A stretch of DNA of 64,000 nt from an uncultured Gammaproteobacteria bacterium (GCA_964648865.1 CAZYLV010000001.1:18476-82475), one strand, 5' to 3'. Positions 20,854-63,671 are shown, counted from the first letter of the stretch. Program-made: numbers and translations. The notes: generated from the sequence alone by a model not told the origin.

Positions 20854-21243
20854 TCAGTTCTTGGTCAAGCCGACGATGCGCTGACGGAGCTTCTCCGGAC
20901 GCATCTCGTGCGTGACCAGGATGGCCGTCACCGCCAATCCCCGACCACGGGCCTCGTTGACCGACCGGGCCACGCGCTGGTCATAGGTGCAGACGAAGCG
21001 GCGCGCGCGGCGATCGCTCCCGGTCACCGAGAAGACCGACGAGACCTTGGGTTCGTGCGGCGACGGGCCGTCGTGCTCCCAGCCGGAGATGGCCTCCTGC
21101 ATCTCCAGGAGCTCGAGCTGCCGGATGATCCGGCAGTCGAGCTCGTGCATCCGCAGCCGCTCGCGGCCCGCACGGCGGTCCTCGATGCCGCTGTCGCGGC
21201 GACGCCTGTCCGACCGCTCCTCGCTTCTCGCGTGTCGTGCCAT
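20854..21243 (-). CDS. Hypothetical Arg-rich protein (129 aa).
   Basis: ORF with a GGAGGAG SD before the ATG at 21243. Confidence 0.4.
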   Translation of the reverse strand: MARHARSEERSDRRRRDSGIEDRRAGRERLRMHELDCRIIRQLELLEMQEAISGWEHDGPSPHEPKVSSVFSVTGSDRRARRFVCTYDQRVARSVNEARGRGLAVTAILVTHEMRPEKLRQRIVGLTKN

Positions 21244-21297: not shown

Positions 21298-22203
21298 TCA
21301 AGCGCCCAGGAACGTCCGGACCAGCGGCAGGGCCTCGTCCGGATCGCGGAGCCAAAGGATGCGCGTGTCCTTGCGGAACCAGGTGAGCTGACGGCGGGCG
21401 TAGGCATGGCTGTCCCACTTGATGCGCTGCACGGCCTCGGCTTCGGTAAGCGCGCCATCGAGATGGGCGATGATCTCGCGGTAGCCGATCCCGGAAAGCG
21501 CCGGCGGGCCCGTGCCGTAGCGTCCCACGAGGCGGCGCACTTCGGCGAAGAGCCCGCGGGCCACCTGCTCGTCGACACGGACGTCGATGCGCCGGTAGAG
21601 CTCCTCGCGCGGCAGGTCGATGCCCAGCTGCAGCGTCCGGAGACGCGGCCATGCCTTCCCCTCCCCGGCGGGCGCGGCGCGGGCCACCTCGAGCGCCCGG
21701 ATGAGCCGGCGCTTGTTGCGCCGATCGATGGTCTCGGCGCGCTCCGGGTCCAGGTCACGCAGCTCCCAGAGGAGCTCCGCCGCGGTCTTGCGCTCCAACC
21801 GTCGCCGCAGTGCCGCGTCCGGGGGCACGCGCGGGATCTCCAGCGCATCCACCACGGCACGGATATAGAGCCCGGTCCCGCCGACCAGGATCGGTACCCT
21901 CCCCCGCTCCCGGATGGCGGCGATGGCCGCGAAGGCCCGCTCCTGCCAATCGGCCACGGTGAAGGACGCATCCGGATCGATGATGTCGATGAGATGCTGC
22001 GGCACCCCGAGCACGGTGGGCACGCCGCCCGGTCCGGGCAACGGATCGCGCTCCTTGCCGGTGCCGATGTCCATGCCCCGATAGACCTGTCGGGAATCGG
22101 CGCTCACCAGCTCGCCGCCGAACGCCAAAGCCAGCCGCACGGCGAGCGCGGTCTTCCCGGAGGCGGTGGGGCCGACGACGGCCACGAGCTTCCCTGCGTC
22201 CAT
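21298..22203 (-). CDS. miaA: tRNA dimethylallyltransferase.
   Basis: P-loop GPTASGKT and MiaA motifs (DSRQVYRGMDIGT). Confidence 0.9.
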   Translation of the reverse strand: MDAGKLVAVVGPTASGKTALAVRLALAFGGELVSADSRQVYRGMDIGTGKERDPLPGPGGVPTVLGVPQHLIDIIDPDASFTVADWQERAFAAIAAIRERGRVPILVGGTGLYIRAVVDALEIPRVPPDAALRRRLERKTAAELLWELRDLDPERAETIDRRNKRRLIRALEVARAAPAGEGKAWPRLRTLQLGIDLPREELYRRIDVRVDEQVARGLFAEVRRLVGRYGTGPPALSGIGYREIIAHLDGALTEAEAVQRIKWDSHAYARRQLTWFRKDTRILWLRDPDEALPLVRTFLGA

Positions 22204-22259
22204 GGCTCCTCTATACCCGAAACGGCCCGTTGGCTACAATGGGCGCAACCACTTCCCCT

Positions 22260-24428
22260 ATGGCACGCGAAGGTTTCTCCCCCGCTCCGGAATCCGCCCG
22301 CAAGGCCTTCCCCAAACCGGAAGGCTACAAGCCGCCCAAGCGGGAGGCCGTGCCGCCGCCCATCCCGGAGGCGGCACGCCGGCCCAAACCGCCGTCCGAG
22401 AAACCGCCGCCGCCGCGCATCGACGTCACTGGCGCGACGTTCCTGGCACCCAAAGAGGTCTCATTGACCGGCATCGAGACGCCGGCACAGGCCACGGATC
22501 TAGTCGAGAAGCGGACGATGCCGGCGCGCGGCGAGAAGCTCAAGGCCCGCGAGGAGGAGAGGCAGCGCGAAGCCGCCGAACGCGGTCCGCAGTTCGAGGC
22601 CGGCACCAACGCCGCCAAGGAGAAGGGTGCCGCGGCCTTCGCCGACCCGGACAAGGGGACGTTCCTGTTCGTCGCCTCGGAGAAGGCCGGCCCGGCGACC
22701 GTCGGCGCTCTCGCTGAGCAGATGGCCGCGCCCATGGAAGCTGCAGCGGCCCGCGCCCAGCAGGAGGAGGCCGCGCTCTTGCTGACAGGTGCCGAGGAGG
22801 TCGCCCGCGGCCGCGCATCGACGGTCGATGGCGGTCTGCTGAAGGCTCAGAGCGTGGGAACGGAGGCCGCGATCCTCACCGAGAACGCCCACCTCGTGGC
22901 GCGCGGCGATAAGGCCACGACCATCGAAGTGCCACCATTCGTGGCCGGCACGGTCATCGACGAGGAGATCTCCCCCATCGAGTTCTACGGAGACGTAAAG
23001 GGTGCCCGCGAGCAGATCGGGGCGATCCTCGACGGGGAAGGCGGCGCCGCCGGCGCCGAGCGGCGCCTGGAGCAGGAAATCGCGGATGCCCAGGCCGCGC
23101 TCGATGCCAAATATGCCGAGATCACATCATGGATGGGCGGGCAGGACCCCTACGAGACGTTCCCCAGCCGCGACGATCTGCTCCAGGCGGTCGAAGACGG
23201 GAAGATGCTGCCGGAGGCGATGACCTACCTCGAACAGGTCTATCCTGCGCCCGAAGATACGGTCCGCACCAACCCTTCGCTGGTCGACATCCGCGACAGC
23301 GCCAAACGGACCCGCACGCAATACGAGTTCCCGCTCGGCATCGCCCGGACGCTCGAGAAGAAGATCGCCGACATGCGCCAGGCCCGACTCACCCAGAAGG
23401 GCGAGGACTTCGACGAGAGCTTCCGTGACCTGCTCGACGATCCGGACGTGACGGAGCTTGCGCCCGGCAGCCGCGTCCTGCTGCTCGAGAAGCTCCGTGA
23501 GCCGGTCGCGCTCACCCCGGAAACCGCGAAGGACATGGCCGCGCCGACACTCGACGACGCCGCCGAAGCGCGCGTCGAGGAGGAGGCCTTCGCGCTTTCC
23601 CGGGCTTTTGAAGAATACAAGAAAGCCAAACCGGAGGAGCAAGCCAAGGCGCTTGCGGTCATCAACGGCGTACTGGACGCGCCCGAGATGAAGCAGGTCA
23701 TGGACACGCCGGCGGAGCGCCTCGCGCTCTACCGGAAGGTCGCGGACGCCTATCCTGCGGGAGACCGCAGCATCGACATCCTGTTCCGACGCGACATCAA
23801 GGCTGTCCCCTCCGAACGGGCTCTTGCCGAGCGGCTCACGGAGCCGACGCTCTCCCAGGAGGAACGCGGCACGGTCGGCGACATCGTCTACGAGATGCGC
23901 CGGGACAAGGCCTTCGACGAAGGCGTGCTCAAGAAGGATCCGCGCTTCCAGCAGCTCTCGCGCGAGGGCAAATTCGCGCTGGTCAAGCGGCTGGAGAACG
24001 AGGACATCGCCTCCGAAAAACAGGCGGCGGAGCTGCTGCGCACCAAGAGCCTCGTGGTGCGCGGCCGGCCAGGCGACAAGCTGGCCATGCTCAAGGTCAA
24101 CCGCACCGGCGAGATCACCCGACTCGACGACAAGTTCGTGAAACGCGCGGAGCAGGACCAAGTCCAACTGGGCGGCGCCGAGCGGACCGTCGAGCAGCAG
24201 GCGGCCACCTCGCTCAGCGTACCGGTCGAGGCCGGCGACCAGATCATCGTCGTCCCAAAGGAATTCGTCGAATCGCGCTTCGGCGTCGAGGAGACCGAGG
24301 GCATGGGGCGTATCGAGCAGCTCATGGCGGAGATCAAGGGCGACCCCAACCGCAGCGCCAAGACCACCTCGCAGAAGCTCAAGGACCTCTCGGACCGTCC
24401 GCACCTGGCGCTCAAGATCCCGCTGTAA
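22260..24428 (+). CDS. Large hypothetical acidic protein of about 720 aa, with no TM helix and no enzymatic motif.
   Basis: ORF. The start is ambiguous: ATG at 22239 or 22260, or the TTG at 22230 used by the track. TGGCTACAAT lies at 22231-22240. Confidence 0.5.
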   Translation: MAREGFSPAPESARKAFPKPEGYKPPKREAVPPPIPEAARRPKPPSEKPPPPRIDVTGATFLAPKEVSLTGIETPAQATDLVEKRTMPARGEKLKAREEERQREAAERGPQFEAGTNAAKEKGAAAFADPDKGTFLFVASEKAGPATVGALAEQMAAPMEAAAARAQQEEAALLLTGAEEVARGRASTVDGGLLKAQSVGTEAAILTENAHLVARGDKATTIEVPPFVAGTVIDEEISPIEFYGDVKGAREQIGAILDGEGGAAGAERRLEQEIADAQAALDAKYAEITSWMGGQDPYETFPSRDDLLQAVEDGKMLPEAMTYLEQVYPAPEDTVRTNPSLVDIRDSAKRTRTQYEFPLGIARTLEKKIADMRQARLTQKGEDFDESFRDLLDDPDVTELAPGSRVLLLEKLREPVALTPETAKDMAAPTLDDAAEARVEEEAFALSRAFEEYKKAKPEEQAKALAVINGVLDAPEMKQVMDTPAERLALYRKVADAYPAGDRSIDILFRRDIKAVPSERALAERLTEPTLSQEERGTVGDIVYEMRRDKAFDEGVLKKDPRFQQLSREGKFALVKRLENEDIASEKQAAELLRTKSLVVRGRPGDKLAMLKVNRTGEITRLDDKFVKRAEQDQVQLGGAERTVEQQAATSLSVPVEAGDQIIVVPKEFVESRFGVEETEGMGRIEQLMAEIKGDPNRSAKTTSQKLKDLSDRPHLALKIPL

Positions 24429-24442
24429 AAAAGAGAGCGCTT

Positions 24443-24838
24443 CTAGGCGCTCTGCCGCATGACGTTCTCGAGATCCTTGGTCTCGGAGCCGTAGCTGACC
24501 CGCAGGGACACCACCTGCGGGTTTCCGCGCGCGTCCGTGGGGACGGGCTTCGCCGGACGGGCGATGGTCCGGACCGGGAACCCCGAGCGCTGCGTGTGCT
24601 CGACGATCTCGAGCGGGACTTCGGTGCCGTCCTCGAGCACCAGGCGAGGGTTGAGCCGGGCGAAGACGTCGTGGACGCCGATGCGGTCCTCGGCGTCGAC
24701 CGAGACCAGCAGGTCGCCTCCCCCATGGGCCATGATGCGTGCCTTCACCAGGCAGCGGTACAACCATCCCGGGTGGGCATCCATGCGGAACACCCGGGCG
24801 AGAGCATCGGAAAGACTCGACACGAGTGACCTCCACAT
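24443..24838 (-). CDS. Hypothetical protein (131 aa).
   Basis: ORF starting MWRSLVSS... The longer 162-aa track version is N-terminally low-complexity. Confidence 0.4.
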   Translation of the reverse strand: MWRSLVSSLSDALARVFRMDAHPGWLYRCLVKARIMAHGGGDLLVSVDAEDRIGVHDVFARLNPRLVLEDGTEVPLEIVEHTQRSGFPVRTIARPAKPVPTDARGNPQVVSLRVSYGSETKDLENVMRQSA

Positions 24839-24991
24839 GTGGAAGCATGGTAACGCGACGGTGAGGGAAAGGGAAAGGGCGGAAGGTGCGGCCGGCGGCC
24901 GCCCCCGTCCGCGGCGCGGACCGCACACCATAGCCGTCTTCCCCCCAATCCGTCAAGGGTCGGGAGAACCGGGAGCGCGACGTCCGGAGCC

Positions 24992-25001
24992 GTTGTACAG
25001 C
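24992..25001. promoter_or_regulatory. Operator-like near-palindrome GTTGTACAGC followed by an ATTGACG (-35-like) box.
   Basis: Seen in the sequence. Second copy at 25060. Confidence 0.4.
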
Positions 25002-25059
25002 GGCGATTGACGGCGCTTTCCTGCGGTTCCTCACCTCTCGGGCGTCTCCGTCAGCCGAC

Positions 25060-25069
25060 GCTGTACAGC
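25060..25069. promoter_or_regulatory. Operator-like perfect palindrome GCTGTACAGC followed by an ATTGACG (-35-like) box, upstream of the gene at 25121.
   Basis: Seen in the sequence. Confidence 0.4.
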
Positions 25070-25120
25070 CGTCCATTGACGCGCCGCGTCGTGCATGGTG
25101 TCGTGCGGACGGAGGCGACC

Positions 25121-25522
25121 ATGCACCATGTTCCTGCCGAGCTCTGGGTGCTCCTGGTGAGCGCCACGGAGGACGGACTGTTCATCCACTGCCTGCCGAA
25201 CAGGGACGGCCGCGTCCCGGACGGCATGGAGACGCTCCGCTGGAGCGTCGAGACGGCCAACGGCGGAGCGCAGCTGCGGGTCCTCAAGACCGAGCGCTTC
25301 AGCGGCGACCTCACCGTCGGGCTGACGTGCGTCGGGCGTCGCGCCCGGGACCGCGCCCTGCTCACGGCCACGCGACGCTTCGCGGAGGGGGTCCCCTTCG
25401 CCATCGATGCCGTCCGCATCGAGATCGACGAGCACGCCCTGCGCTTCGCCGCGACGCCGGGCTGGACCCGCGCCGGCAGCCGCCGCTACGAGAAGGCCGA
25501 CGCCGGAGAACGCGCTGCCTGA
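25121..25522 (+). CDS. Hypothetical protein (133 aa).
   Basis: ORF starting MHHVPAELWVLL. Confidence 0.4.
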   Translation: MHHVPAELWVLLVSATEDGLFIHCLPNRDGRVPDGMETLRWSVETANGGAQLRVLKTERFSGDLTVGLTCVGRRARDRALLTATRRFAEGVPFAIDAVRIEIDEHALRFAATPGWTRAGSRRYEKADAGERAA

Positions 25523-25535
25523 CCGCAGCGCTTTT

Positions 25536-26843
25536 TTATTCTGCGGCGGATGCCCGCAACGTCTCGATGAGCCCCTGCGCCGCCTGACGCGACGCGCGTT
25601 CGGTCGAGACGGCGCGTTGCAGGCGATCCACCACGTCCGCCCAGTCCGCCTTCTTCTCCTTCGGGGCACGCGCCATCCTCTCCACGGCCAACTCGAGCAT
25701 GCCGTCGAAGACGCGCTCCGCATCATCCGCGGCCTGGATGCGCAACATGGCGTAGTCGAGCCCGGTGACGTCGGCGTTCTTCGCCGCCAGCCCGTCGTAG
25801 TGGGCCTTCACCGCGTCGCTGATGATCTGGCTGAACTCGTGGAGGTCCTTGCTGGCGAGCGCTGCATCCTCCCAGTCGGCGGCGGTGATGGCCCGCTCGG
25901 CGCGGACCGTCCGCCCCTCCATGGTCCCGACGGCGGACTCGAGACCCGCCACGGAGCGCTCCGCGGTCGGCTGATCGATTTCCACCATCCCGATGCCGCT
26001 GAAGATGTCCTCGACGTCCTCGACGACGGTGTCGAGCGAGGCGGTCCTCAGCATCGCCGTCTCCGCCTCCAGCTCCTCGGCCGGCGGGTACTCCGAGACC
26101 GCGCGCGCGGCGCGGGGAGCCTCGATCTCCTCCGTGATCCGCTCCGCGGCCAGGTCGATGCGCTCGGCCTGCTTCCTGCCGGCGATCGTCATGATGCGTT
26201 GTTCATGCGCGATGTCGCCGTCGAGCCGCCCGATGAGCTCGCCGCAACGCTCGATGATCTGCTGCTGGTCGGACCGCAGCAGGAGGCCGACGACGGCGCC
26301 GCGCATCTCCTGGAAGGAGCAGATGGCGTCCCGTGCCGCGCGGATGCGCATGCCGAGCTCCACGCCTTCATTGAAGGCCTTGCGGCCCTCGACGGCCTGG
26401 GCGAGGTTCAGCGAACGCAAGGTGTCCGTGGCCTGGGCGAGCCGGTGGAGCTCCTCAGCCTCGGCGCGCAGCGCGGCGAAGCGCTTGGCGTCGATGGCCG
26501 CTTCCTCGCGCAGGCGGTCGGACGCGGCCAGGGCCTCGATGTCCTTTTCGGCCTCGCGCATGGCGTCGGTACGGGACTCGACGAAGGCCAGCATGCCGTC
26601 CACGGCCTTCTCGAGCGTCGCCATCTCCTCTTTGGAGAGCGCGGGCTTCTCACGGAGCTCCTGCAGCTTCATGACGTCGGCGATGGCCTCGCGGACGTCC
26701 TCGGAGGGCGCCATCATCTCGGCGAGGAGCTCTTGCGTCTCGGTACGCGCCTTGCGCCGCTCGAGCGGGACAGGGGCGGCCTTCTCGGCGTCCTTGCCGA
26801 GTTCGAATTCGACGTCTTGGGGGCGGATGCGACGCTCGGGCAT
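25536..26843 (-). CDS. Hypothetical coiled-coil protein (435 aa).
   Basis: Long E/R/A-rich helical ORF with an ATG start. Confidence 0.5.
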   Translation of the reverse strand: MPERRIRPQDVEFELGKDAEKAAPVPLERRKARTETQELLAEMMAPSEDVREAIADVMKLQELREKPALSKEEMATLEKAVDGMLAFVESRTDAMREAEKDIEALAASDRLREEAAIDAKRFAALRAEAEELHRLAQATDTLRSLNLAQAVEGRKAFNEGVELGMRIRAARDAICSFQEMRGAVVGLLLRSDQQQIIERCGELIGRLDGDIAHEQRIMTIAGRKQAERIDLAAERITEEIEAPRAARAVSEYPPAEELEAETAMLRTASLDTVVEDVEDIFSGIGMVEIDQPTAERSVAGLESAVGTMEGRTVRAERAITAADWEDAALASKDLHEFSQIISDAVKAHYDGLAAKNADVTGLDYAMLRIQAADDAERVFDGMLELAVERMARAPKEKKADWADVVDRLQRAVSTERASRQAAQGLIETLRASAAE

Positions 26844-26930
26844 AGGTGGGGGTTATGCTCGCCTCCAGTATACCCTTGACGGGTGCCCCGGAAAAGCGTA
26901 TGGTGAGGCGTCCCAAAGGAGGGGCAACCG

Positions 26931-27371
26931 ATGGCTGGGACGACCAAGGCACGGACGCCGTGCCGACCTGAGTTCATCCTGCAGCTGCAGTTCGAGGAGC
27001 ATGAGGGCACGCTGGAGCGCGCGCTGCTCCTCTACCCGCGGGCCCGCGCCGACGGCGCGCTGCCGTCGGAAGCGGACTTCGCCGGGCTCCGAGTGGCCTA
27101 CGAGAGCGCGGGGCGCTCGCGCAGGCGCCGCCTGGTCCCCTACCGCGTCACGGCTGCGCACCCGCTGCTCCCCCGCTCGATGGGCAAGCGGCAGGGACGC
27201 ATGCTCTGGCTCGAACCGGCCAGCGTGCTGGCCGGGGAGGTCGAGGCGCTCGCGCGGCAGCGGGACGCCGAGGGCCGGGCGATCTCGTCCATCCACCTGC
27301 GCTGGCCAGACGGCCACGAGGAGCGGTACGACCGCGTCCTCGACGACGGGCTCTGGTTCTTCCGGTCCTGA
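26931..27371 (+). CDS. Hypothetical protein (146 aa).
   Basis: SD AAAGGAGGGG before the ATG, and GCGTATGGT as a -10-like element. Confidence 0.45.
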   Translation: MAGTTKARTPCRPEFILQLQFEEHEGTLERALLLYPRARADGALPSEADFAGLRVAYESAGRSRRRRLVPYRVTAAHPLLPRSMGKRQGRMLWLEPASVLAGEVEALARQRDAEGRAISSIHLRWPDGHEERYDRVLDDGLWFFRS

Positions 27372-27432
27372 CCACAGGGCCGTTCTTCTTTTTTTATGCT
27401 ATAGTGATGGGGATTTCCACAAACGTTAGCCT

Positions 27433-29313
27433 ATGCCCGAAGGCGCCCGCCGCATCGAGAGCGACTACGAGAAACTTGGGGTCGAGCCCGAGGAACTCGA
27501 GGATTACATCGGCAATGCCGTGGTCCGCGTCTCCGAGCTCCAGGCCGAGAAGGCACAGCTCGAGGGCGAGGGCGCGCCCAAAAAGGAGATCGCCGAAAAG
27601 AACCGCGAAATCCGCACGCTGCAGAAGCTCATCCGCGACAACGAGAACGCCTTCCGCAGGGCGGACGAGCGCCGGAAGGAGACGACGGCCAAAGCCAAGC
27701 AGGACCAGCTCATCTCCCGGACGAAGGCCGCAGTGGCCCGGGCCAAGGTCGGACGCATCGCCAAAAAGGAAGCGCCCGCCGAGCCGGAAGAGCGGACCGA
27801 CGAGGAGATGGCCAAGCAGGCCGAGCTCATCGAGCGCACCAAGGCGGCGGTCAAGACCAAGACGCTCATCGAACGGACCAAGGCGGCCGTAGCCCGTAAG
27901 GAGAAGGCCGACAAGGAAGCCCGCGACATGGACGAGGCCGAGCGCGCCGCCGCGGAGTTCCGCGCGCGGCTCGAGGCGCGCAAGCAGGCGCGCGAGGCCA
28001 CCGAGAAGGAGCTGATGAACCAGCTCGTCGCCGCCATGGAGGCCGGGCCGGTCACGGAGAGCAAAGAAGAACGGCCGTTCCGCGAGCAGGCCGAGGTGAA
28101 CGGCATCCAATTCTCGGTCGGCTGGGCGGAGCCGGACAAGCGGTACGAGGCGTACTTCCCCCAAATCGACTTCATGTCCCGTACGGCGAGGCAGTACGGC
28201 ATCCACGATCAGGTCTTCATCCTGGATGCCGAGACGCCGGCAGAAGCGCGCGCGGCGTTCCAGAAGATCAAGGACGCCATCAAGGACGAGTCGGACCCGT
28301 ACCGCGCCTACGCCAAGGCCGAGGCCGCCGTGTACGGCGAGAAGTTCGAGGAACCGGCACCGGAAAACCTGCCTGTGGACGAGGAAGAGACCTACGAGCG
28401 GAACGTCTCCGACGCGGACGTCTCCGCCCGAGTCCGCATCTGGGCCGGGCTAAACAAAAAGGGGCGCGAGGGGATGGAGGCAATGCTCTCGGACGCTGCA
28501 TACGGCCCCAAATATATCAAGGAACGCACTCGGGCGTTCCTCGCCCAAGAGTACCCTGGCTGGGACCGCGGGGATTTCCAAGAACTGCTCGAACAGATCG
28601 CCCTCGAGCGTGACCGGCTGGAGACGGAGAAGGCGCGCAGCAAACGGTTCAAGGAAGAAGCCACCGAGCTGGCGACCGAGCGGCTCGTCGAAAAGCCGAC
28701 CGCGCGCATCGACGCCCTGCGCGAGAAAATCCGCAAGCTCAAGGAGGAGGCCAAGACGGAGCGCGAGCGCCTCGGCACCATGACCGGCGACACCGAGGCC
28801 GAGGAGCGGTTCTTCGAGCAAGGGTCCAAACCGGAGGAGCTCGCCCGCCGCGAGCGCGCCAAGGACCTGTATCCCGAGGAGACGCCGGATGAGGCCGTCG
28901 CGCAGATGGAGAAGATCGAGGCCCAAAGCGCCCGCGACTTCGAGAACGAGCAGGACTTCGCCACGGCCTTTACTGACGCGGTCAGGAACGATCCCGCGCG
29001 GCGCCTCAACCCGGACGTCGCCAAGGAGTACGCCGCGCAATACTGGAAGCTCCTCCAGAAGGACAACCGGCGCCTGGCCGAAGCCATGAAGCCCCAGCCC
29101 AAGGTCGGCTTCTTCCGCCGCATCTTCGGCGGCGCGCCCAAGCCCAAGCAGGTGATGACGCCCCAGGAGATCGTCCAGTTCCAGAAGATGGACAAGATGG
29201 TCCGCGAGATCATGGAGAAGCCGTCGACCTCGCTGCGCTCCGTCCGCGTCGGCGCCCGGTCCGCGTCGCGCGGCCCCGGCGCGCCCACGACCATGGGTCG
29301 GCCGCCCCGTTGA
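27433..29313 (+). CDS. Hypothetical coiled-coil protein (626 aa).
   Basis: Long E/K/R/A-rich ORF. TGcTATAGT extended -10 upstream. Confidence 0.5.
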   Translation: MPEGARRIESDYEKLGVEPEELEDYIGNAVVRVSELQAEKAQLEGEGAPKKEIAEKNREIRTLQKLIRDNENAFRRADERRKETTAKAKQDQLISRTKAAVARAKVGRIAKKEAPAEPEERTDEEMAKQAELIERTKAAVKTKTLIERTKAAVARKEKADKEARDMDEAERAAAEFRARLEARKQAREATEKELMNQLVAAMEAGPVTESKEERPFREQAEVNGIQFSVGWAEPDKRYEAYFPQIDFMSRTARQYGIHDQVFILDAETPAEARAAFQKIKDAIKDESDPYRAYAKAEAAVYGEKFEEPAPENLPVDEEETYERNVSDADVSARVRIWAGLNKKGREGMEAMLSDAAYGPKYIKERTRAFLAQEYPGWDRGDFQELLEQIALERDRLETEKARSKRFKEEATELATERLVEKPTARIDALREKIRKLKEEAKTERERLGTMTGDTEAEERFFEQGSKPEELARRERAKDLYPEETPDEAVAQMEKIEAQSARDFENEQDFATAFTDAVRNDPARRLNPDVAKEYAAQYWKLLQKDNRRLAEAMKPQPKVGFFRRIFGGAPKPKQVMTPQEIVQFQKMDKMVREIMEKPSTSLRSVRVGARSASRGPGAPTTMGRPPR

Positions 29314-29323
29314 TACGGTGCAG

Positions 29324-29351
29324 AAAACCCCCGGCACCTGCCGGGGGTTTT
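29324..29351. terminator. Bidirectional terminator between convergent genes.
   Basis: AAAACCCCCGG-cacctg-CCGGGGGTTTT. Confidence 0.55.
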
Positions 29352-29359
29352 CTGTCCGT

Positions 29360-31207
29360 CTACGAGACGTGGCCGGCGATCTCCTTTTGGACCTTCTTCA
29401 CGAACGCGCCGAGCATCATGGTCTTCTGCGCCTGCTCGCCGCGTTTGCGGACCGTGACCTTCTTGAGGGCCTTCTCCTTGTCCCCCACCACCAGCATGTA
29501 CGGGACTTTGGCCTTCTCGGCCTTGCGGATCTTGTAGCCGACGCTCTCGTTGGCGTCGTCGTCCTCCGCGCGGATGCCGGCCTCCGCGAGCATCTTGGCG
29601 AGCTTGGCCGCTGCCTTGAGGTGCCCCTTGCCGACAGGGATGACGGCGACCTGCACCGGCGCGAGCCAGGTCGGGAAGGCGCCGGCGTAGTGCTCGATGA
29701 GGATGCCGAGGAAGCGCTCCACCGAACCCAAGATGGCGCGATGCACCATGACCGGGCGCTTCTTGGTGCCGTCGGCCGCCGTGTACTCGAGCCCGAAGCG
29801 CTCCGGCTGGTTGAAGTCGAGCTGGATGGTGGCCAGCTGCCACGTGCGGCCGATGGCGTCTGTGGCGATGAAGTCGAGCTTGGGGCCGTAGAAGGCGGCG
29901 TCCCCTTCGCCGATGTCGTAGTCGACCTTGTTCTTCTTGAGGACGTCCTTGAGCGTCCCTTCCGCCATCGTCCACACCTCATCCCCACCCAGGTACTTCT
30001 CCGGCTTCTGCGGGTCGCGCACCGACAGCTGGACGCGCAACGGCATCTTGAAGACCTTGTAGAAACTCTTGATCACCCGGTAGACGTTCTGGATCTCCTT
30101 CTCGGCCTGCTCCGGCGTGCAGAAGAAGTGCGCATCGTCCTGGGTGATGGCGCGTACGCGCGTGAGGCCGGCGAGCTGGCCGGTGTTCTCGTCGCGGTAG
30201 ACGGTGGTGTTCTCGGCGTAGCGGATGGGCAGGTCGCGGTAGCTGCGCGGCCGGCTGGCGTAGATCTGGGTGTGATGCGGGCAGTTCATCGGTTTGAGCA
30301 CGAACCGCTCGTCGGACTTCTTGGAGGAGACATGGAACAGGTCGTCCTCGAACTTGTCCCAGTGACCGGAGGTCCGGTAGAGGTCGGCCTTGGTGATGTG
30401 CGGGATCCAGACCCGCTTGTAGCCGTACTTGGTCTGCAGCGAGGCCACGAATTCCTCGAGCGCGCGCCGCAGCATGGTGCCGCGCGGGGTGAAGAGCGGC
30501 AGCCCCGAGCCGACGAGCGGCGAATAGACGAAGAGATCGAGCTCGGCGCCCAGCTTGCGATGGTCGCGCTTCTCGGCTTCTTCCAGCATCTTCCGGTGCG
30601 CGTCGAGCTCCTCCTGGGTGGCGAAGGCCAGCCCGTAGATGCGGGTCAGCTGCGGGTTCTTCTCGTCCCCGCGCCAGTAGGCCCCGGCGACCTTGGTGAG
30701 CGAAAAGGCGCCGAGGTCGCGCGTCGTAGCCACGTGCGGGCCGCGGCAGAGGTCGACGAACTTCCCGGTGCGGTAGACGGACGCCACGTCCGGCCGGGCC
30801 GCATCCACATCCTGCGCTTCCTCGGCCTTGATCTTGGTGGTCCCCTTCTCCTTGAGGTCGGTGAGGAGCTCCACCTTGTAGGGCTGGCCCATCTCGGTGA
30901 AGAAGGCGATGGCCTGGTCGAGCGGCATCTCCTCGCGCGCGTAGGCCTCGCCGCGCTCGGCGATCTTGCGCATGCGCTTCTCGATCCTCGGGAGATCGCC
31001 CGCCGTGATCGGCTGCGGCGTCTGCAGGTCGTAGAAAAAGCCGTGCTCGACCACCGGCCCGACGCCGAGCTTGGTGCCCGGATACAGCTCCATGACCGCG
31101 GCGGCCAGGAGGTGCGCCGTGGAATGACGGACGGTGTCGATGGGGAAGGCCTGTTTCTCGTGGGGCATAACGGCATCAATCTTGCCGGTTCTCATGGCAA
31201 AAAGCAA
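29360..31207 (-). CDS. thrS: Threonine--tRNA ligase lacking the N-terminal TGS domain.
   Basis: Editing-domain HSTAHLL motif and class II catalytic motifs. Alternative start MPHEK at 31168. Confidence 0.9.
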   Translation of the reverse strand: MLFAMRTGKIDAVMPHEKQAFPIDTVRHSTAHLLAAAVMELYPGTKLGVGPVVEHGFFYDLQTPQPITAGDLPRIEKRMRKIAERGEAYAREEMPLDQAIAFFTEMGQPYKVELLTDLKEKGTTKIKAEEAQDVDAARPDVASVYRTGKFVDLCRGPHVATTRDLGAFSLTKVAGAYWRGDEKNPQLTRIYGLAFATQEELDAHRKMLEEAEKRDHRKLGAELDLFVYSPLVGSGLPLFTPRGTMLRRALEEFVASLQTKYGYKRVWIPHITKADLYRTSGHWDKFEDDLFHVSSKKSDERFVLKPMNCPHHTQIYASRPRSYRDLPIRYAENTTVYRDENTGQLAGLTRVRAITQDDAHFFCTPEQAEKEIQNVYRVIKSFYKVFKMPLRVQLSVRDPQKPEKYLGGDEVWTMAEGTLKDVLKKNKVDYDIGEGDAAFYGPKLDFIATDAIGRTWQLATIQLDFNQPERFGLEYTAADGTKKRPVMVHRAILGSVERFLGILIEHYAGAFPTWLAPVQVAVIPVGKGHLKAAAKLAKMLAEAGIRAEDDDANESVGYKIRKAEKAKVPYMLVVGDKEKALKKVTVRKRGEQAQKTMMLGAFVKKVQKEIAGHVS

Positions 31208-31243: not shown

Positions 31244-32749
31244 TCATTTGAACTCCAGGTCGATGTGGTCGGCGAGGTTCGGCAACCGCTTGAGCCAGGC
31301 CGGCGTGACATCGATTTCGGCGTCGGAGACGCCGTCTGCGGACTCGAGCTGCGCTTCGGCCTCCTCGAGCGACAGGCCCGTGAGCCGCTCGCGGTCGAAG
31401 GCCTCGCTGGATTCCTTGAGGGCCGACTCGCCATGGGCCGTGACCGAGAGCGTGGCGCTCTTGGACGCCAGGTCGCTGCCGGCGAGCGTCACCTCCAGGC
31501 GCTCGGCATCGAGCCGGACGATCTCCTTGTCCTCGGGCGCGGCGGCACGCAGCTGCGCCTCGGCGACGCGCGCCAGGGCGTCCTTCTCGTAGAAGACGGC
31601 CTCGACATGCACGGCCACGGTGACGTCAAAGACATCCTGCTGCTCGCCGACCGCGGCCGTGGTCTCGCGGCGGACGATCGATTCCTTGAAGAACACGCCG
31701 CTGCCGACCTCCGGCCGGGAGAGCAGCGCCTTGAGCTTGTCGGCGGCCTCCGCCGCGACTTCCTTGGCTGCCGCGGCGTACGCGGCGTCGAGCTCCTCCT
31801 GGGTGACGATCGAGACCTCGCGGGCGCCGCCGGTCATGCTGGCGGTCGACACGGCGTACGTCAGCTCCTGCAGCGACGCCGGCAGGCCGGGGATGGTGAA
31901 GCGCGTCGGGTCGATGTCGCCGCCGGCGCCGGGCTGGTCGGCGCAGGCCCGCGTCTCGAGCCGGCCGTCGGCGGGCACGGAGACGGTGCTCTCGAGGCGG
32001 AAGAGCACGCCATCCGGGGAGAGCAGCCGCGTGGTGGCCACGAGCGCCTGGGTGCGGGATTGGGTATTGATGATGGTCACCGCGCCGCAGGCCTTGCCTT
32101 CCACCAGCCGTTTCTCGCCGGATGCCTGCACGGTGCGGGTGCCTTCGACGACCGTCTCGAGCACCGCGCCAGGCACGGCCTCGGCGTCGGCCGGCTCCGG
32201 GGAGACGGTCACGGTGAAGGCCGTGGACACAGGCAGCGGCGCGCGGGTCACGACGACCGTGGCGCGGGTGAAGGACAGGTAGAGGACGAAACCGAGCAGG
32301 AGGATGGCCAGGCCGATGAACGTCGTGGCCAACTTGCGGTACAGGGAAAGATGCACGGCCGGGCGCGGCGTGCGGCGCGGTTGGGAAAAGCGCGAGGGTC
32401 CGCCCTGCGACGGCGCCGCGGCGGGAGACGCCGCGCTCGGGCGGGGCTCGGCGTGGTCGATGGACATGTCGTGCGCCTCGGCCGCGGGCCGGATGGCCAA
32501 CGTCGCCGGACGCGCGGCGTCGACGTCGAGCGGCACGCGCTGTTCCTCCGGCACCACCGCCGGCGGCGGCACGAAACCGGCCGGAGGCACGGAGACCTCA
32601 TGCGGCGTCTCGGCGGAAAGCAGCGCCTCAAGCTCCGGCGCCAACGGCTTGGCCTCGGGCGACGGCGCGGGCGGCGGAGGCGGCGCGGCAGCCTTAGGCT
32701 TGCGCGCCGTGGCCTTTTTCTTTCCGCTCGGCTTCTTCTTCGTGGGCAT
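31244..32749 (-). CDS. Hypothetical membrane-anchored protein: Lys/Pro-rich N-terminus, one TM helix, large extracytoplasmic domain.
   Basis: ATG at 32749 preceded by a GGAGGA SD and a TGGTATAGT extended -10 (32779-32787, minus strand). Confidence 0.5.
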   Translation of the reverse strand: MPTKKKPSGKKKATARKPKAAAPPPPPAPSPEAKPLAPELEALLSAETPHEVSVPPAGFVPPPAVVPEEQRVPLDVDAARPATLAIRPAAEAHDMSIDHAEPRPSAASPAAAPSQGGPSRFSQPRRTPRPAVHLSLYRKLATTFIGLAILLLGFVLYLSFTRATVVVTRAPLPVSTAFTVTVSPEPADAEAVPGAVLETVVEGTRTVQASGEKRLVEGKACGAVTIINTQSRTQALVATTRLLSPDGVLFRLESTVSVPADGRLETRACADQPGAGGDIDPTRFTIPGLPASLQELTYAVSTASMTGGAREVSIVTQEELDAAYAAAAKEVAAEAADKLKALLSRPEVGSGVFFKESIVRRETTAAVGEQQDVFDVTVAVHVEAVFYEKDALARVAEAQLRAAAPEDKEIVRLDAERLEVTLAGSDLASKSATLSVTAHGESALKESSEAFDRERLTGLSLEEAEAQLESADGVSDAEIDVTPAWLKRLPNLADHIDLEFK

Positions 32750-32795
32750 AGTCCTCCATCCCCTCAAATGTCCTCCCTACTATACCACATCGCGT

Positions 32796-61186: not shown

Positions 61187-61776
61187 AGGTCGCCGCTGCG
61201 GCGGAATGCCAGGGTCAGCGTGCGGTAGTCGACGGTCGGCTGGTCGTCGCCGGATTGGGTCGAGCGCTGCGCGGCGACCGTGACCGTGGCGCGGCCGCCG
61301 GTCGCGTCGAGGGATGCGAGCGTCGTGGAGACGGCGCGCGTGGTCACGCCCACGTACCCGTCCCCGCCGCCCCCGGCCGAGCGGGCCTGGGCGATGGTTC
61401 GCTCCGTTGCCTCGCGCATCGACGCCGTCATGAGCGGATAGAGGTCGACGAGGTTCTGGAAGTCGGCCTGGTTGGAGTAGGTGCCGAACCGCTCTGCGAA
61501 CTGCCCGGCCGAGGAGACGAGCCGCTGCTCGAGGATCTCCTGATCCGAGGCGCGGGTGAACGTCTCGGCGGGTGCGGCGGGCGCGGACGCCGTCGGGACG
61601 TTGGCGTTGACCTGCGGCAAGCCTCCGGCCGGAGCGAGCGACGCCGTCGGCGTCGGCGCTTCGGCGGCGGGCTCCTCGGGCGCCGGCGCCGGACGCAGCA
61701 GGACGGCGGCCACGGCCGCCACCACGGTGACGAACACGACGACCCCGGCAACGATCAAGAGCATCCGCCGGCTCAT
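61150..61776 (-). CDS. Hypothetical membrane-anchored protein, a possible VirB8-like component.
   Basis: N-terminal TM helix and Pro/Ala linker. ATGA overlap with the upstream VirB4 gene. Confidence 0.45.
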   Translation of the reverse strand: MSRRMLLIVAGVVVFVTVVAAVAAVLLRPAPAPEEPAAEAPTPTASLAPAGGLPQVNANVPTASAPAAPAETFTRASDQEILEQRLVSSAGQFAERFGTYSNQADFQNLVDLYPLMTASMREATERTIAQARSAGGGGDGYVGVTTRAVSTTLASLDATGGRATVTVAAQRSTQSGDDQPTVDYRTLTLAFRRSGDLWLVDSATWSAQ

Positions 61777-63671
61777 ACGCCGCCCTCCTGTTCGGCGAGC
61801 TGCTGCTGGAACTCCTTCTTGGCCTGCTCGATCTCAAGCAGCTGGCGCGGATCGGTGGTGATGACCTGGTCCTCGGCGTACGAGGCGACGATCTTGATGG
61901 CGGCGTGCTTCTGGCCGGCGAAGAAGATGCCCTCGCCCACCCCGCTCTCGAGCAGCAGGTACTTCTCCCCCTGCGTGAGCAGGAAGGTCTTGGTGACCAG
62001 CTCGATGGAGGCCGGCGACTGCTTGAGCAGCAGCTGGATGGAGGAGTTGGTGACGATGGCCTGCCCGTAGGGCGAGGTCAGGAAGTCGTTGACGTCCTGG
62101 GTGATGGTGGTCACCCCGAGGTAGTACTTGCGGCAGCGTTTGACGAGCGCGAAGACGAACTTGGCCGAATCCTCCTGCTGCATCAGCCACCAGGCCTCGT
62201 CGATCACGAGGATGCGCCGCTTGCGCTCCGAGCGCACCACGTTCCAGATGTAGTTGACGATGCTGTAGATGGCCAGCGGCCGCAGCTCGTCTTCCAGGTC
62301 GCGCACCGAGAAGATGACCAGCGTGTTGCGGATGTCGACCGTGGTCGGCGAGTTGAAGAGCCCGGCGAAGGTGCCCTCGGTGTACTTCTTGAGCCGTTCC
62401 ACCAGGTCGCCGGATCCCTCCATGCCTTGGAGGACCTCCTGGAAGTCCTGGAAGATCGGCGGCTCGACGCGCGCCAGGTCGACGCCGGGGACGATGTCCT
62501 TCTTGGCGTAGGTCTCGAGCAGCGCCCGGTCGATGATGGAGTCCTCGGCGGTCGTCAGCTTGCCGCCGAGCATCAATCGGACGAGACCCTTCAACGTGAT
62601 GACGGCGCTGCGGATGATGTCCTCCACGGAATACTGCTCCCCCACCGGCCGGGGCAGCTCGAAGGGGTTGATCTTGGAATCCGAGGCCAGCGAGATGTTG
62701 ATGTACGTGCCGCCGACGGCGTCCGAGAGATGCTTGTATTCCATCTCCGGGTCGATGATCAGCACCTCGGAGCCGAGCATCAGCGACCGCAGCACCTCGA
62801 GCTTGACGGCATACGATTTTCCGGCGCCGGAGGTCGCGAACACGACCATGTTGGCGTTCTGGAGGGAAAAACGGTCGAACAGGATGAGCGAGTTGTTGTG
62901 GCGGTTGATGCCGTAGAGGATGCCGTTGTCCGACGTCAGGTCCGCCGAGGTGAACGGGAAGCTCGAGGCGATCGGCGAGCTGTTCATGTTGAAGGTCACC
63001 TGCAGCTCGTCGTTGCCGAGCGGCAGCGTGGAGTTGAAGCCCTGCTCGGCCTGGTAGAAGACGCGCTTGGAGTAGATGAGCTTGGCGCCGAAGACGTTCT
63101 CGATGTCGAGCGAGAACTTGTCCAGCTCCTCCTTGCTCTTGCCGTAGATCGTGATGTACAGCGCGAACTGGAAGAAGTGCTCGACGCCCTGCGTAAGGTC
63201 GTCGCGGAGCTTCTCGATGTCCCGCAGCGCCGTCTCCCGGAGCGGATCGCGCGGCGCGCCCTTCTCGGCATCGGAGAGGATCTGCGCCTCGAGGGTGCCG
63301 ACCTTGTTCTTGAGCTGCTTGAGGATGACGTGCGCCTTGACGGGGTAGAAGAACATCCCCACGTCGAGCATCTGGTTGATGTTGAGGATGGGCGTGAACC
63401 ACCCCACGCCCACGTAGCGCGGATAGGTGACCACGAAGACGGTCCGCACGTAGAGGTCACCGAGCAGCACGAAGGACGGCTCGACCTTCATGGCCGCGGG
63501 GGCGATGAGGTCGCGGATGGAGACGGTGCCTTTCCGGTAGACACGCTCCTCCTCGAGCGCCTCCTTCTCCACGGCGACCTTCTTTGCGGCTTCCGTGTCC
63601 GTCACCAAGGTCCCGCCCACCTCGACGGGGGCCCGCTTGCCGCGCAGCGCTTTGAACGGGTTGATGGCCAT
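61773..63671 (-). CDS. VirB4/PrgJ-type conjugation/T4SS ATPase.
   Basis: Walker A FATSGAGKSY and Walker B VIDEAWWLM. Confidence 0.8.
   Translation of the reverse strand: MAINPFKALRGKRAPVEVGGTLVTDTEAAKKVAVEKEALEEERVYRKGTVSIRDLIAPAAMKVEPSFVLLGDLYVRTVFVVTYPRYVGVGWFTPILNINQMLDVGMFFYPVKAHVILKQLKNKVGTLEAQILSDAEKGAPRDPLRETALRDIEKLRDDLTQGVEHFFQFALYITIYGKSKEELDKFSLDIENVFGAKLIYSKRVFYQAEQGFNSTLPLGNDELQVTFNMNSSPIASSFPFTSADLTSDNGILYGINRHNNSLILFDRFSLQNANMVVFATSGAGKSYAVKLEVLRSLMLGSEVLIIDPEMEYKHLSDAVGGTYINISLASDSKINPFELPRPVGEQYSVEDIIRSAVITLKGLVRLMLGGKLTTAEDSIIDRALLETYAKKDIVPGVDLARVEPPIFQDFQEVLQGMEGSGDLVERLKKYTEGTFAGLFNSPTTVDIRNTLVIFSVRDLEDELRPLAIYSIVNYIWNVVRSERKRRILVIDEAWWLMQQEDSAKFVFALVKRCRKYYLGVTTITQDVNDFLTSPYGQAIVTNSSIQLLLKQSPASIELVTKTFLLTQGEKYLLLESGVGEGIFFAGQKHAAIKIVASYAEDQVITTDPRQLLEIEQAKKEFQQQLAEQEGGV

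Follow-up and report, generated by a model that had tools for sequence, protein, structure and literature searches.

Bacteria with reduced genomes can possess a lineage-specific cytoskeleton, as exemplified by the terminal-organelle proteins HMW1, HMW2 and P65 of Mycoplasma and by the coiled-coil-rich proteins of bacteria. Here, we describe six uncharacterised genes, named A to F, which occupy positions 22230-29313 of a 64,000-nucleotide stretch of DNA (GCA_964648865.1, CAZYLV010000001.1:18476-82475; hereafter, the window) and are bounded by miaA (21298-22203, minus strand) and thrS (29360-31207, minus strand). The block is similar to the Mycoplasma cytoskeletal proteins in that it encodes large, charged, helical or Pro-rich proteins without enzymatic domains, clustered in a small genome of a narrow lineage. 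In contrast to them, it is known from its genes alone, and it has no sequence, Pfam or fold relationship to those proteins. Two other described cases are close to it. In Escherichia coli, the membrane-targeting sequence of MinD (KGFLKRLFGG) tethers proteins to the membrane when transplanted (PMC5471200), and a motif of this type is found in gene F. In the Patescibacteria (candidate phyla radiation, CPR), 54,343 lineage-specific gene clusters of uncharacterised function have been listed (AGNOSTOS, PMC9132574). That set shares with the block the abundance of taxonomically restricted uncharacterised genes, at the level of single families, whereas here six or seven such families stand in one syntenic cluster with conserved regulatory signals, a situation that PMC9132574 does not address.

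By their co-occurrence and conserved order across divergent genomes, A to F are a module. The reading that we prefer, with a probability of roughly 35%, is that the block encodes a clade-restricted, membrane-tethered structural assembly of fast-evolving cytoplasmic proteins. F would be an elongated, mostly helical scaffold with a MinD-type amphipathic helix (KVGFF[RK][RK][IL]FGG, with basic Pro/Lys flanks) that lies in the plane of the cytoplasmic membrane and keeps the protein on its inner side. Its invariant short motifs (an N-terminal helix, PENLPV, and a basic tail), together with the helical D and A (or X, a paralog of A in sister genomes), would bind B, C, and E, the small beta-rich members. 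Jointly, A to F may form a membrane-proximal structure that serves, for instance, cell shape, division or contact between cells, and its logic would be analogous to that of lineage-specific cytoskeletons elsewhere among bacteria with reduced genomes. In this view, the charged segments that are hypervariable would be spacers, which would account for their fast change and their indels.

The six genes and their slot between miaA and thrS

The coding regions are given below with their ratios of nonsynonymous to synonymous substitution rates (dN/dS), calculated against the orthologous contig of the closest relative, L007.

22260..24428, plus strand: gene A, 722 amino acids (aa); G+C content at third codon positions (GC3) 0.85, dN/dS 0.28
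24443..24823, minus strand: gene B, 126 aa; GTG start with GGAGG, dN/dS 0.45
25121..25522, plus strand: gene C, 133 aa; ATG start with GGAGG upstream, dN/dS 0.49
25536..26843, minus strand: gene D, 435 aa; acidic and Ala/Glu/Arg-rich, dN/dS 0.40
26931..27371, plus strand: gene E, 146 aa; small and Arg-rich, dN/dS 0.68
27433..29313, plus strand: gene F, 626 aa; orthologs P0004-P0008, dN/dS 0.25

Overlapping frames were tested because spurious long open reading frames (ORFs) are common in DNA with a G+C content as high as that of the window (~69%). GC3 was 0.85-0.92 in the six chosen frames and 0.88-0.94 in gatB, miaA, thrS, and dnaE, while competing overlapping ORFs had a GC3 of 0.65-0.83 and a wrong GC1/GC2 pattern. 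When compared with L007, a relative of 69% G+C, all six genes aligned through to their stop codons, and every indel was in frame; the dN/dS of thrS in the same comparison was 0.17. Given the flank-like GC3, the dN/dS values of 0.25-0.68 and the in-frame indels, the six ORFs are genuine genes under purifying selection. This bears out a sequence-only reading of the window, which had placed six genes in alternating orientation between miaA and thrS; from A to F, the orientation is + - + - + +. The TTG at 22230, the position from which it counted the block, sits within a conserved -10 element; A therefore starts at the ATG at 22260 and has 722 aa, which is also the length recorded by NCBI. Of the small proteins, for which it gave 131, 133, and 146 aa, the latter two lengths were retained, but B most likely starts at the GTG at 24823, with GGAGG 6 nucleotides (nt) upstream, and has 126 aa rather than 131.

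The large proteins A, D, and F are Ala-rich, and 32-40% of their residues are D/E/K/R, so that their description as highly charged was correct. They had also been called acidic, which applies to A (net charge -25) and D (-28) but not to F, which is near neutral (-6). No transmembrane-like or signal-like segment was found in A to F (highest Kyte-Doolittle 19-residue mean ≤1.28), in agreement with the earlier claim that transmembrane helices are lacking. Paralogy among the six proteins was ruled out, as neither BLAST nor hhalign detected any. The low synonymous divergence (dS) of B and C (0.13-0.15) was discarded as a signal, as a sliding identity profile showed both to be merely as conserved as the flanks.

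The best matches of thrS (64-66%) are to Candidatus Uhrbacteria and other Patescibacteria metagenome-assembled genomes, and, judged from sequence, the window is from a high-GC Patescibacteria genome close to Candidatus Uhrbacteria. The source is probably a tiny groundwater bacterium with a genome of about 1 Mb, of which the block would make up ~7 kb. Exact or near matches to the block proteins were found only in metagenome assemblies. Order and orientation are the same wherever the arrangement A-B-(X)-C-D-E-F is found between miaA and thrS, namely in L007, L088/L089 (GCA_041643055.1), L090, L091, L093 (an 856-kb contig of GCA_004297205.1), and L095 (the contig name of which points to a Hainich groundwater well), with gatB-miaA / thrS-orf507-dnaE as the surrounding frame. 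In addition, the partial contig L092 has X, C, D, E, and F adjoining thrS, and the more distant relative L094 has A-B-C after miaB-miaA. The cluster is thus carried by at least eight related genome sequences, in which thrS, where the contig includes it, is 68-91% identical to that of the window; four of them (L090, L091/L093, L092, and L095) have the seventh gene, X, between B and C. All genomes carrying any of these families keep them together, in one order and at one chromosomal slot. The synteny check that the earlier reading had proposed therefore came out in favor of a unit conserved in related genomes, and its view of the block as self-contained is further supported by the block's own promoters and terminators.

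As the block separates thrS from miaA, which are widely adjacent in the phylum, it could in principle be a genomic island, a prophage remnant, or an artefact of assembly or annotation. This is scarcely credible: GC and GC3 match those of the flanks, no tRNA, integrase or flanking repeats were found at the block borders, no block relatives were found in viral contigs, phage genomes or plasmids, and at least seven studies have yielded the same block in independent assemblies of their samples. The explanation is refuted as far as present data go, and the codon-usage check for an island, also proposed earlier, gave a native GC3. Since the cluster has stayed in one slot within the clade, its distribution points to vertical inheritance.

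For a comparison of the slot, 80 Patescibacteria loci were fetched. thrS is followed by miaA in 27 of these, with a gap ranging from 20 bp to 6.5 kb, and the nearest outgroups, L010 and L011 (thrS 64-66%), keep the whole frame with other genes in the gap. Large E/K-rich ORFs (524-1230 aa) are located in or near the slot in the Uhrbacteria-like L008, L009, L010, L011, and L052 (for example, L010 3343-5427 and L052 1866-6825). Their homology to the block was rejected, as none was found by BLAST, phmmer, hhalign or family hidden Markov models (HMMs), and they are not detectably related to one another; a "GFF" motif in them that resembles the block by eye was given no weight. Across the phylum, the slot has the look of a hotspot for lineage-specific proteins of charged composition. 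The block has to be weighed against a simpler explanation, in which a permissive slot gathers unrelated, weakly constrained young genes by gene birth and turnover, and there is no module. The variable gap with its unrelated contents (including the other large E/K-rich ORFs) is in line with this, as are the separate promoter and terminator of every gene, the dN/dS of 0.68 for E, the lack of sequence conservation of C across the clade, and the very high number of lineage-specific uncharacterised genes in the phylum (the 54,343 clusters of PMC9132574). We nevertheless regard it as somewhat unlikely, because genomes with a thrS identity of only 68-84% have kept the order and orientation of the genes and even their promoter and terminator elements, all families always co-occur, and many residues are invariant in B, in the C-terminal third of A and at both ends of F. 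Moreover, a streamlined genome of ~1 Mb would be expected to shed 7 kb of useless DNA.

Gene F and its MinD-like motif

The membrane tether of the proposed assembly would reside in F, where three features are of importance:

28081..28335, plus strand: alpha/beta domain of F, residues 217-301; predicted local distance difference test score (pLDDT) of 82-91 in the model
28360..28377, plus strand: PENLPV of F, residues 310-315; invariant columns P310-V315, pLDDT <50 for residues 310-322
29101..29133, plus strand: motif KVGFFRRIFGG of F, residues 557-567; Lys/Pro linkers on either side

The N-terminal helix of F is conserved, as is its helical C-terminal domain. The other parts are long charged helices that contain three LI[SE]RTKAAV repeats, an alpha/beta insert that is optional, a disordered linker, and a basic tail. 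In the AlphaFold model, which was built on a six-sequence alignment and has a mean pLDDT of 69, long helices cover residues 19-111, 123-203, and 379-448, and the linkers are of low confidence. The domain at residues 217-301 is present in the window, L088, and L090, and cleanly absent in L007, L091, L092, and L093; on this pattern, it is a domain-sized indel within the predicted helical scaffold. PENLPV lies in a low-confidence linker and is a candidate docking site.

Conservation within F is highest at EAMKPQPKVGFF[RK][RK][IL]FGG, in which V558, G559, F560, F561, F565, G566, and G567 are invariant. In the model, it includes a short helix (residues 560-565) within a flexible, low-confidence part. 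The corresponding sequence of the L088 and L090 orthologs, VGFFKRLFGG, is identical to the MinD sequence at 8 of 10 positions, and F and MinD have hydrophobic residues at equal helical positions, basic flanks and flexible surroundings in common. When all 5,893 ORFs of the fetched loci were searched, G[FL][FL][KR][KR][LI]FGG matched F orthologs only. We infer that the motif may act as a peripheral membrane anchor, with KPQPKVGFFRRIFGGAPKPK as the candidate membrane-targeting peptide. Unlike MinD, F has no ParA/MinD ATPase domain according to Pfam and NCBIfam. A deviant Walker A P-loop ATPase was also looked for in F, with no Pfam or NCBIfam match, and a PDB profile search gave only V-ATPase subunit E (E value >0.02).

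A helical or coiled-coil nature had been predicted for the three large proteins. A crude heptad scan, in which shuffled sequences scored 1-4%, placed 17% of the residues of D in heptad-like stretches (residues 68-108 and 339-372), compared with 5% in F and 0% in A, throughout which Pro and Gly are scattered. The prediction is thus supported for F by the long helices of the model and for D by its two heptad-like stretches, but not for A, and heptads are few in F. By this crude measure, the block would depart from coiled-coil-rich cytoskeletal proteins, with little canonical heptad coiled coil in F and none in A. Among the functions that had been guessed for the block, a cytoskeletal or membrane-remodelling role is the only one with positive evidence, namely the MinD-type motif and the long helices of F.

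Several points weigh against a membrane-tethered assembly. (i) The function of F hangs on one short motif, which could bind a protein instead, and which is internal, ~60 residues from the end, while that of MinD is C-terminal. (ii) The contacts among the six proteins are hypothetical. (iii) The genes have separate promoters and alternating orientation, and their co-regulation is likewise hypothetical. (iv) A has no coiled coil by the heptad test. (v) The invariant Asp and His residues of B could form a catalytic or metal site, so that B might be enzymatic. (vi) C is not demonstrably orthologous across the clade. (vii) The fast evolution of the block also fits conflict or host-interaction roles. 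A more far-reaching proposal, that the seven families A, X, and B to F are a new membrane-anchored cytoskeletal or attachment apparatus of new folds in one ultra-small groundwater lineage, is in our view unlikely. The same holds for the idea that, in CPR, such an apparatus corresponds in function to the terminal organelle of Mycoplasma or to a scaffold of the divisome.

Divergence of the block and searches for relatives

Between the window and L088, identity was 84% for thrS, 83% for dnaE, 76% for gatB, and 65% for miaA in the flanks, compared with 37% for A, ~50% for B, 31% for E, and 35% for F within the block. The lineage-specific charged proteins of the locus evolve two to three times faster than their neighbors. 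This divergence is unevenly distributed. In the alignments and the sliding identity profile, B, C, the two ends of F and the C-terminal third of A equal the flanks in conservation; D, E and the central parts of A and F are hypervariable and carry large indels.

The N-terminus of A is rich in Pro (PPPPR-IDVxGxTxLA). Conserved motifs are numerous in the protein, and conservation is strong in its last third, which ends in RPHLxLxIP; its orthologs in L088, L090, L091, and L093 are 37-40% identical. A is the founder of the A/X family, X being its paralog (hhalign, 98.8%), and the two are the sole related pair found in the cluster. C is 88% identical to its L007 counterpart over aligned codons, and its homology to the genes at the same position in L088, L090, L091, and L092 could not be demonstrated (hhalign probability 0.6%). 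The orthologs of D are very variable in length (142-435 aa), with homology that is weak but real (1.5e-5 for L091_D and 6.8e-13 for L095). E, the fastest-evolving member of the block, keeps the invariant motifs PYRV and WPDGxE and is matched to its orthologs by hhalign at 99%.

B is the best-conserved family of the block, with invariant D15, H17, D46, and H51 and several invariant Arg residues, and a profile search with it retrieved 11 homologs, all from the same clade. An AlphaFold model based on 11 orthologs gave a confident beta-rich domain (pLDDT 86; predicted template modeling score 0.78). A PilZ-like interpretation of B, suggested by its motifs, was rejected: the list of its 50 best fold matches contains no PilZ structure, and a PilZ match was likewise missing in Pfam. 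Weak fold echoes of the small beta-barrels of ribosomal protein L35Ae and EF-Tu domain 2 (TM-score 0.3-0.4, E value >0.1) may be taken as a hint that the block encodes accessory proteins of translation or RNA metabolism, all the more as it is set among the translation genes gatB, miaA, thrS, and pheST, and as its highly charged composition recalls the Arg/Lys/Glu-rich helices that are common in RNA-binding proteins. However, the fold matches are not significant, Pfam and NCBIfam detected no RNA-binding domain, and A and D are net acidic. The flanking genes are also directly adjacent, with an empty gap, in many relatives, so that the translation neighborhood reflects the slot and not a common pathway. 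Such a role is very improbable.

Searches for known families were made with the six proteins and their orthologs. Pfam, NCBIfam, PADLOC, and PHROGs gave no credible match for any of them (nothing below an E value of 0.08 in PHROGs for the block proteins), and a Pfam or NCBIfam match was also absent for 9 A/X, 6 F, and 13 C/D-position orthologs. The profiles of DivIVA, PspA/ESCRT-III, bactofilin, SPFH, and dynamin-like proteins were matched neither by the six proteins nor by those orthologs. PDB-sequence profile searches with A/X, B, E, and F found no relatives, and Foldseek searches of the B and F models against the PDB, and of B against BFVD, gave no match below an E value of 0.06. An exhaustive phmmer search of 1.84 billion cluster representatives returned four proteins for A, three of which had a checkable context and came from this cluster (P0002 from L007, the X-like P0022, and P0021 from L094). 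A search with F gave six proteins. The block families have no detectable relatives by sequence or fold outside the clade. As had been claimed, no enzymatic or housekeeping motif was recognised, and the profile-search check gave no assignment to well-known housekeeping families. The novelty of the cluster, judged by its distance from known families, consists in the absence of matches and not in a demonstrated function.

The rapid divergence raises the question of biological conflict. A new anti-phage or conflict system, with proteins that sense or block invaders and are coupled through adaptor domains, would fit identities of 37% for A, 31% for E, and 35% for F where those of thrS and dnaE are 84% and 83%, and would also fit the variable gene content (presence or absence of X, the changing length of D, and a gene insertion in L092). 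This insertion, at L092 2380-5093 between D and E, comprises an ADP-ribosylglycohydrolase (PF03747, E value 5e-57) and a 577-aa ORF. In addition, two F orthologs of the seven-gene version, P0005 (L090 10001-12295) and P0008 (L091 8464-10365), contain a helical segment of ~50 residues (DLQKxYDLTAEQLxxETDPxARAAL) that resembles the EAD9 domain of conflict systems, with Pfam scores of 22.7 and 18.8 bits (E values 8e-5 and 1e-3) below the cut-off of 25. EADs are adaptors of conflict systems and are defined by paired copies (Kaur et al. 2020, PMC7159879). The segment is absent in the window's F, and an HMM of the segment found F alone in all loci, with no partner copy nearby, so that the pairing by which EADs are defined is lacking; being also below threshold, the EAD9 lead was dropped. 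Furthermore, the block differs from EAD9 systems in having no MoxR-vWA, STAND or GTPase core nearby.

Other evidence likewise speaks against conflict. PADLOC-DB v2 assigned no family to A to E, and for F it gave only a match to JetC (residues 24-204, E value 4e-4), which is limited to a charged helix or coiled-coil arm. The likeness of F to Wadjet JetC and MukB-like SMC proteins is weak and consists of charged helices only, and F lacks an ATPase head and a hinge, with neither JetA/B/D nor kleisin partners among its neighbors. Effector domains, such as an NTPase, nuclease or protease, were found in no member, the genes are not an operon, and dN/dS is below 1 throughout. The position between housekeeping genes is fixed in every genome, with native codon usage and no signs of mobility. 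We therefore judge a conflict system improbable, and the earlier guess of a defence function, which meets the same objections, is not supported.

Rapid divergence and large indels could equally be attributed to host pressure, if the block encoded secreted or surface proteins of an episymbiont that leave the cell by non-classical export and act in host interaction. CPR bacteria are mostly thought to be episymbionts (PMC8406219). The N-termini of D and F, and loosely that of A, share an unusual peptide, M-[PA]-E-G-x-R, in several genomes, and a TraG/VirB4-like ATPase is encoded elsewhere in the window. Against this, signal peptides, transmembrane segments, lipoboxes and cell-surface repeat domains are absent from A to F, the adjacent genes include none for secretion, and the MinD-type motif suggests a location on the cytoplasmic side of the membrane. 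A role outside the cell is thus about as improbable as one in conflict.

Transcription signals and neighboring genes

The following regulatory elements were located in and around the block:

22230..22240, plus strand: promoter element of A, TTGGCTACAAT; -10 TACAAT at 22235-22240, holding the spurious TTG of a 732-aa ORF
24434..24453, no single strand: hairpin at the convergent A/B junction, AGAGCGC-TTCTAG-GCGCTCT, with A-run and T-run; bidirectional terminator (terminator scan)
24824..24956, minus strand: promoter and ~97-nt 5' leader of B; -35 TTGACG at 24956-24951, -10 TATGGT at 24932-24927
25512..25531, no single strand: hairpin across the convergent C/D junction, GCGCTGC-CTGACC-GCAGCGC, with T-run; bidirectional terminator
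26876..26904, plus strand: promoter of E, TTGACG-N17-TATGGT, sigma-70-like; conserved in L007, L088, L090, L091, and L092
27363..27382, plus strand: hairpin with T-run at the end of E (terminator scan)
27397..27405, plus strand: extended -10 of F, TGCTATAGT, 3' of the hairpin at the end of E
29324..29351, no single strand: F/thrS terminator, AAAACCCCCGGC-ACCT-GCCGGGGGTTTT; perfect bidirectional intrinsic terminator

Promoter and terminator elements are found at matching places in L007, L088, L090, and L091. The element TTGGCTACAAT is identical upstream of A in the last three of these, the promoter and leader of B are conserved in all four, and the form TGnTATA[GC]T of the extended -10 of F is kept in 5/5 genomes compared. 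TTGACG-N17/18-TATGGT precedes both B and E, and the divergent promoter of D shares the 87-bp D-E spacer with that of E. From this arrangement, each block gene appears to be its own transcription unit, with hairpin terminators separating the units. Promoter elements of individual genes, noted earlier as extended -10 elements (a form that precedes F), and the terminator closing the block are therefore real features of the locus, the former conserved in relatives and the latter accompanied by three more hairpins inside the block.

In the 5' leader of B, a GGCCGC hairpin is conserved, and a C/U-rich tract can base-pair with the Shine-Dalgarno sequence GGAGG. This leader could be a translational control element, although its consensus fold is weak (-8.3 kcal/mol, 5 sequences). 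A, as well as X of the sister genomes, seems to have a short leader without a Shine-Dalgarno sequence. The 297-bp B-C spacer is accounted for, as the promoter and leader of B and the promoter of C fill it; a remnant of X or a small RNA was considered for this spacer and rejected, Rfam having found nothing.

Three further genes of the window are worth recording. Directly downstream of miaA, a small Arg-rich gene of 129 aa (20854-21243, minus strand) has no Pfam match; L090 and L091, though not L088, have homologs of it in the corresponding position, and it could be a further lineage-specific neighbor of the block. Between thrS and dnaE, a 507-aa protein (31244-32767, minus strand), conserved in many Patescibacteria loci, has a Lys/Pro-rich N-terminus, one hydrophobic helix and no Pfam match. 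The TraG/VirB4-like P-loop ATPase (PF19044, E value 1.5e-25) is located at 61773-63671 (minus strand), with small uncharacterised genes on either side, and probably belongs to a module for type IV secretion or DNA uptake that has no relation to the block.

CPR/Patescibacteria represent a large share of bacterial diversity, yet their envelope organisation, division and host attachment are largely obscure, and most of their lineage-specific genes are unannotated. The block stands above this background because a streamlined genome has kept six or seven families in one place along with their promoters and terminators, and the MinD-like motif of F offers a concrete experimental handle on the cluster. 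If the proposed membrane scaffold is real, it would be a new kind of bacterial cytoskeletal element; otherwise, thrS/miaA would be a clean case of a fixed slot where charged lineage-specific proteins arise and evolve fast.

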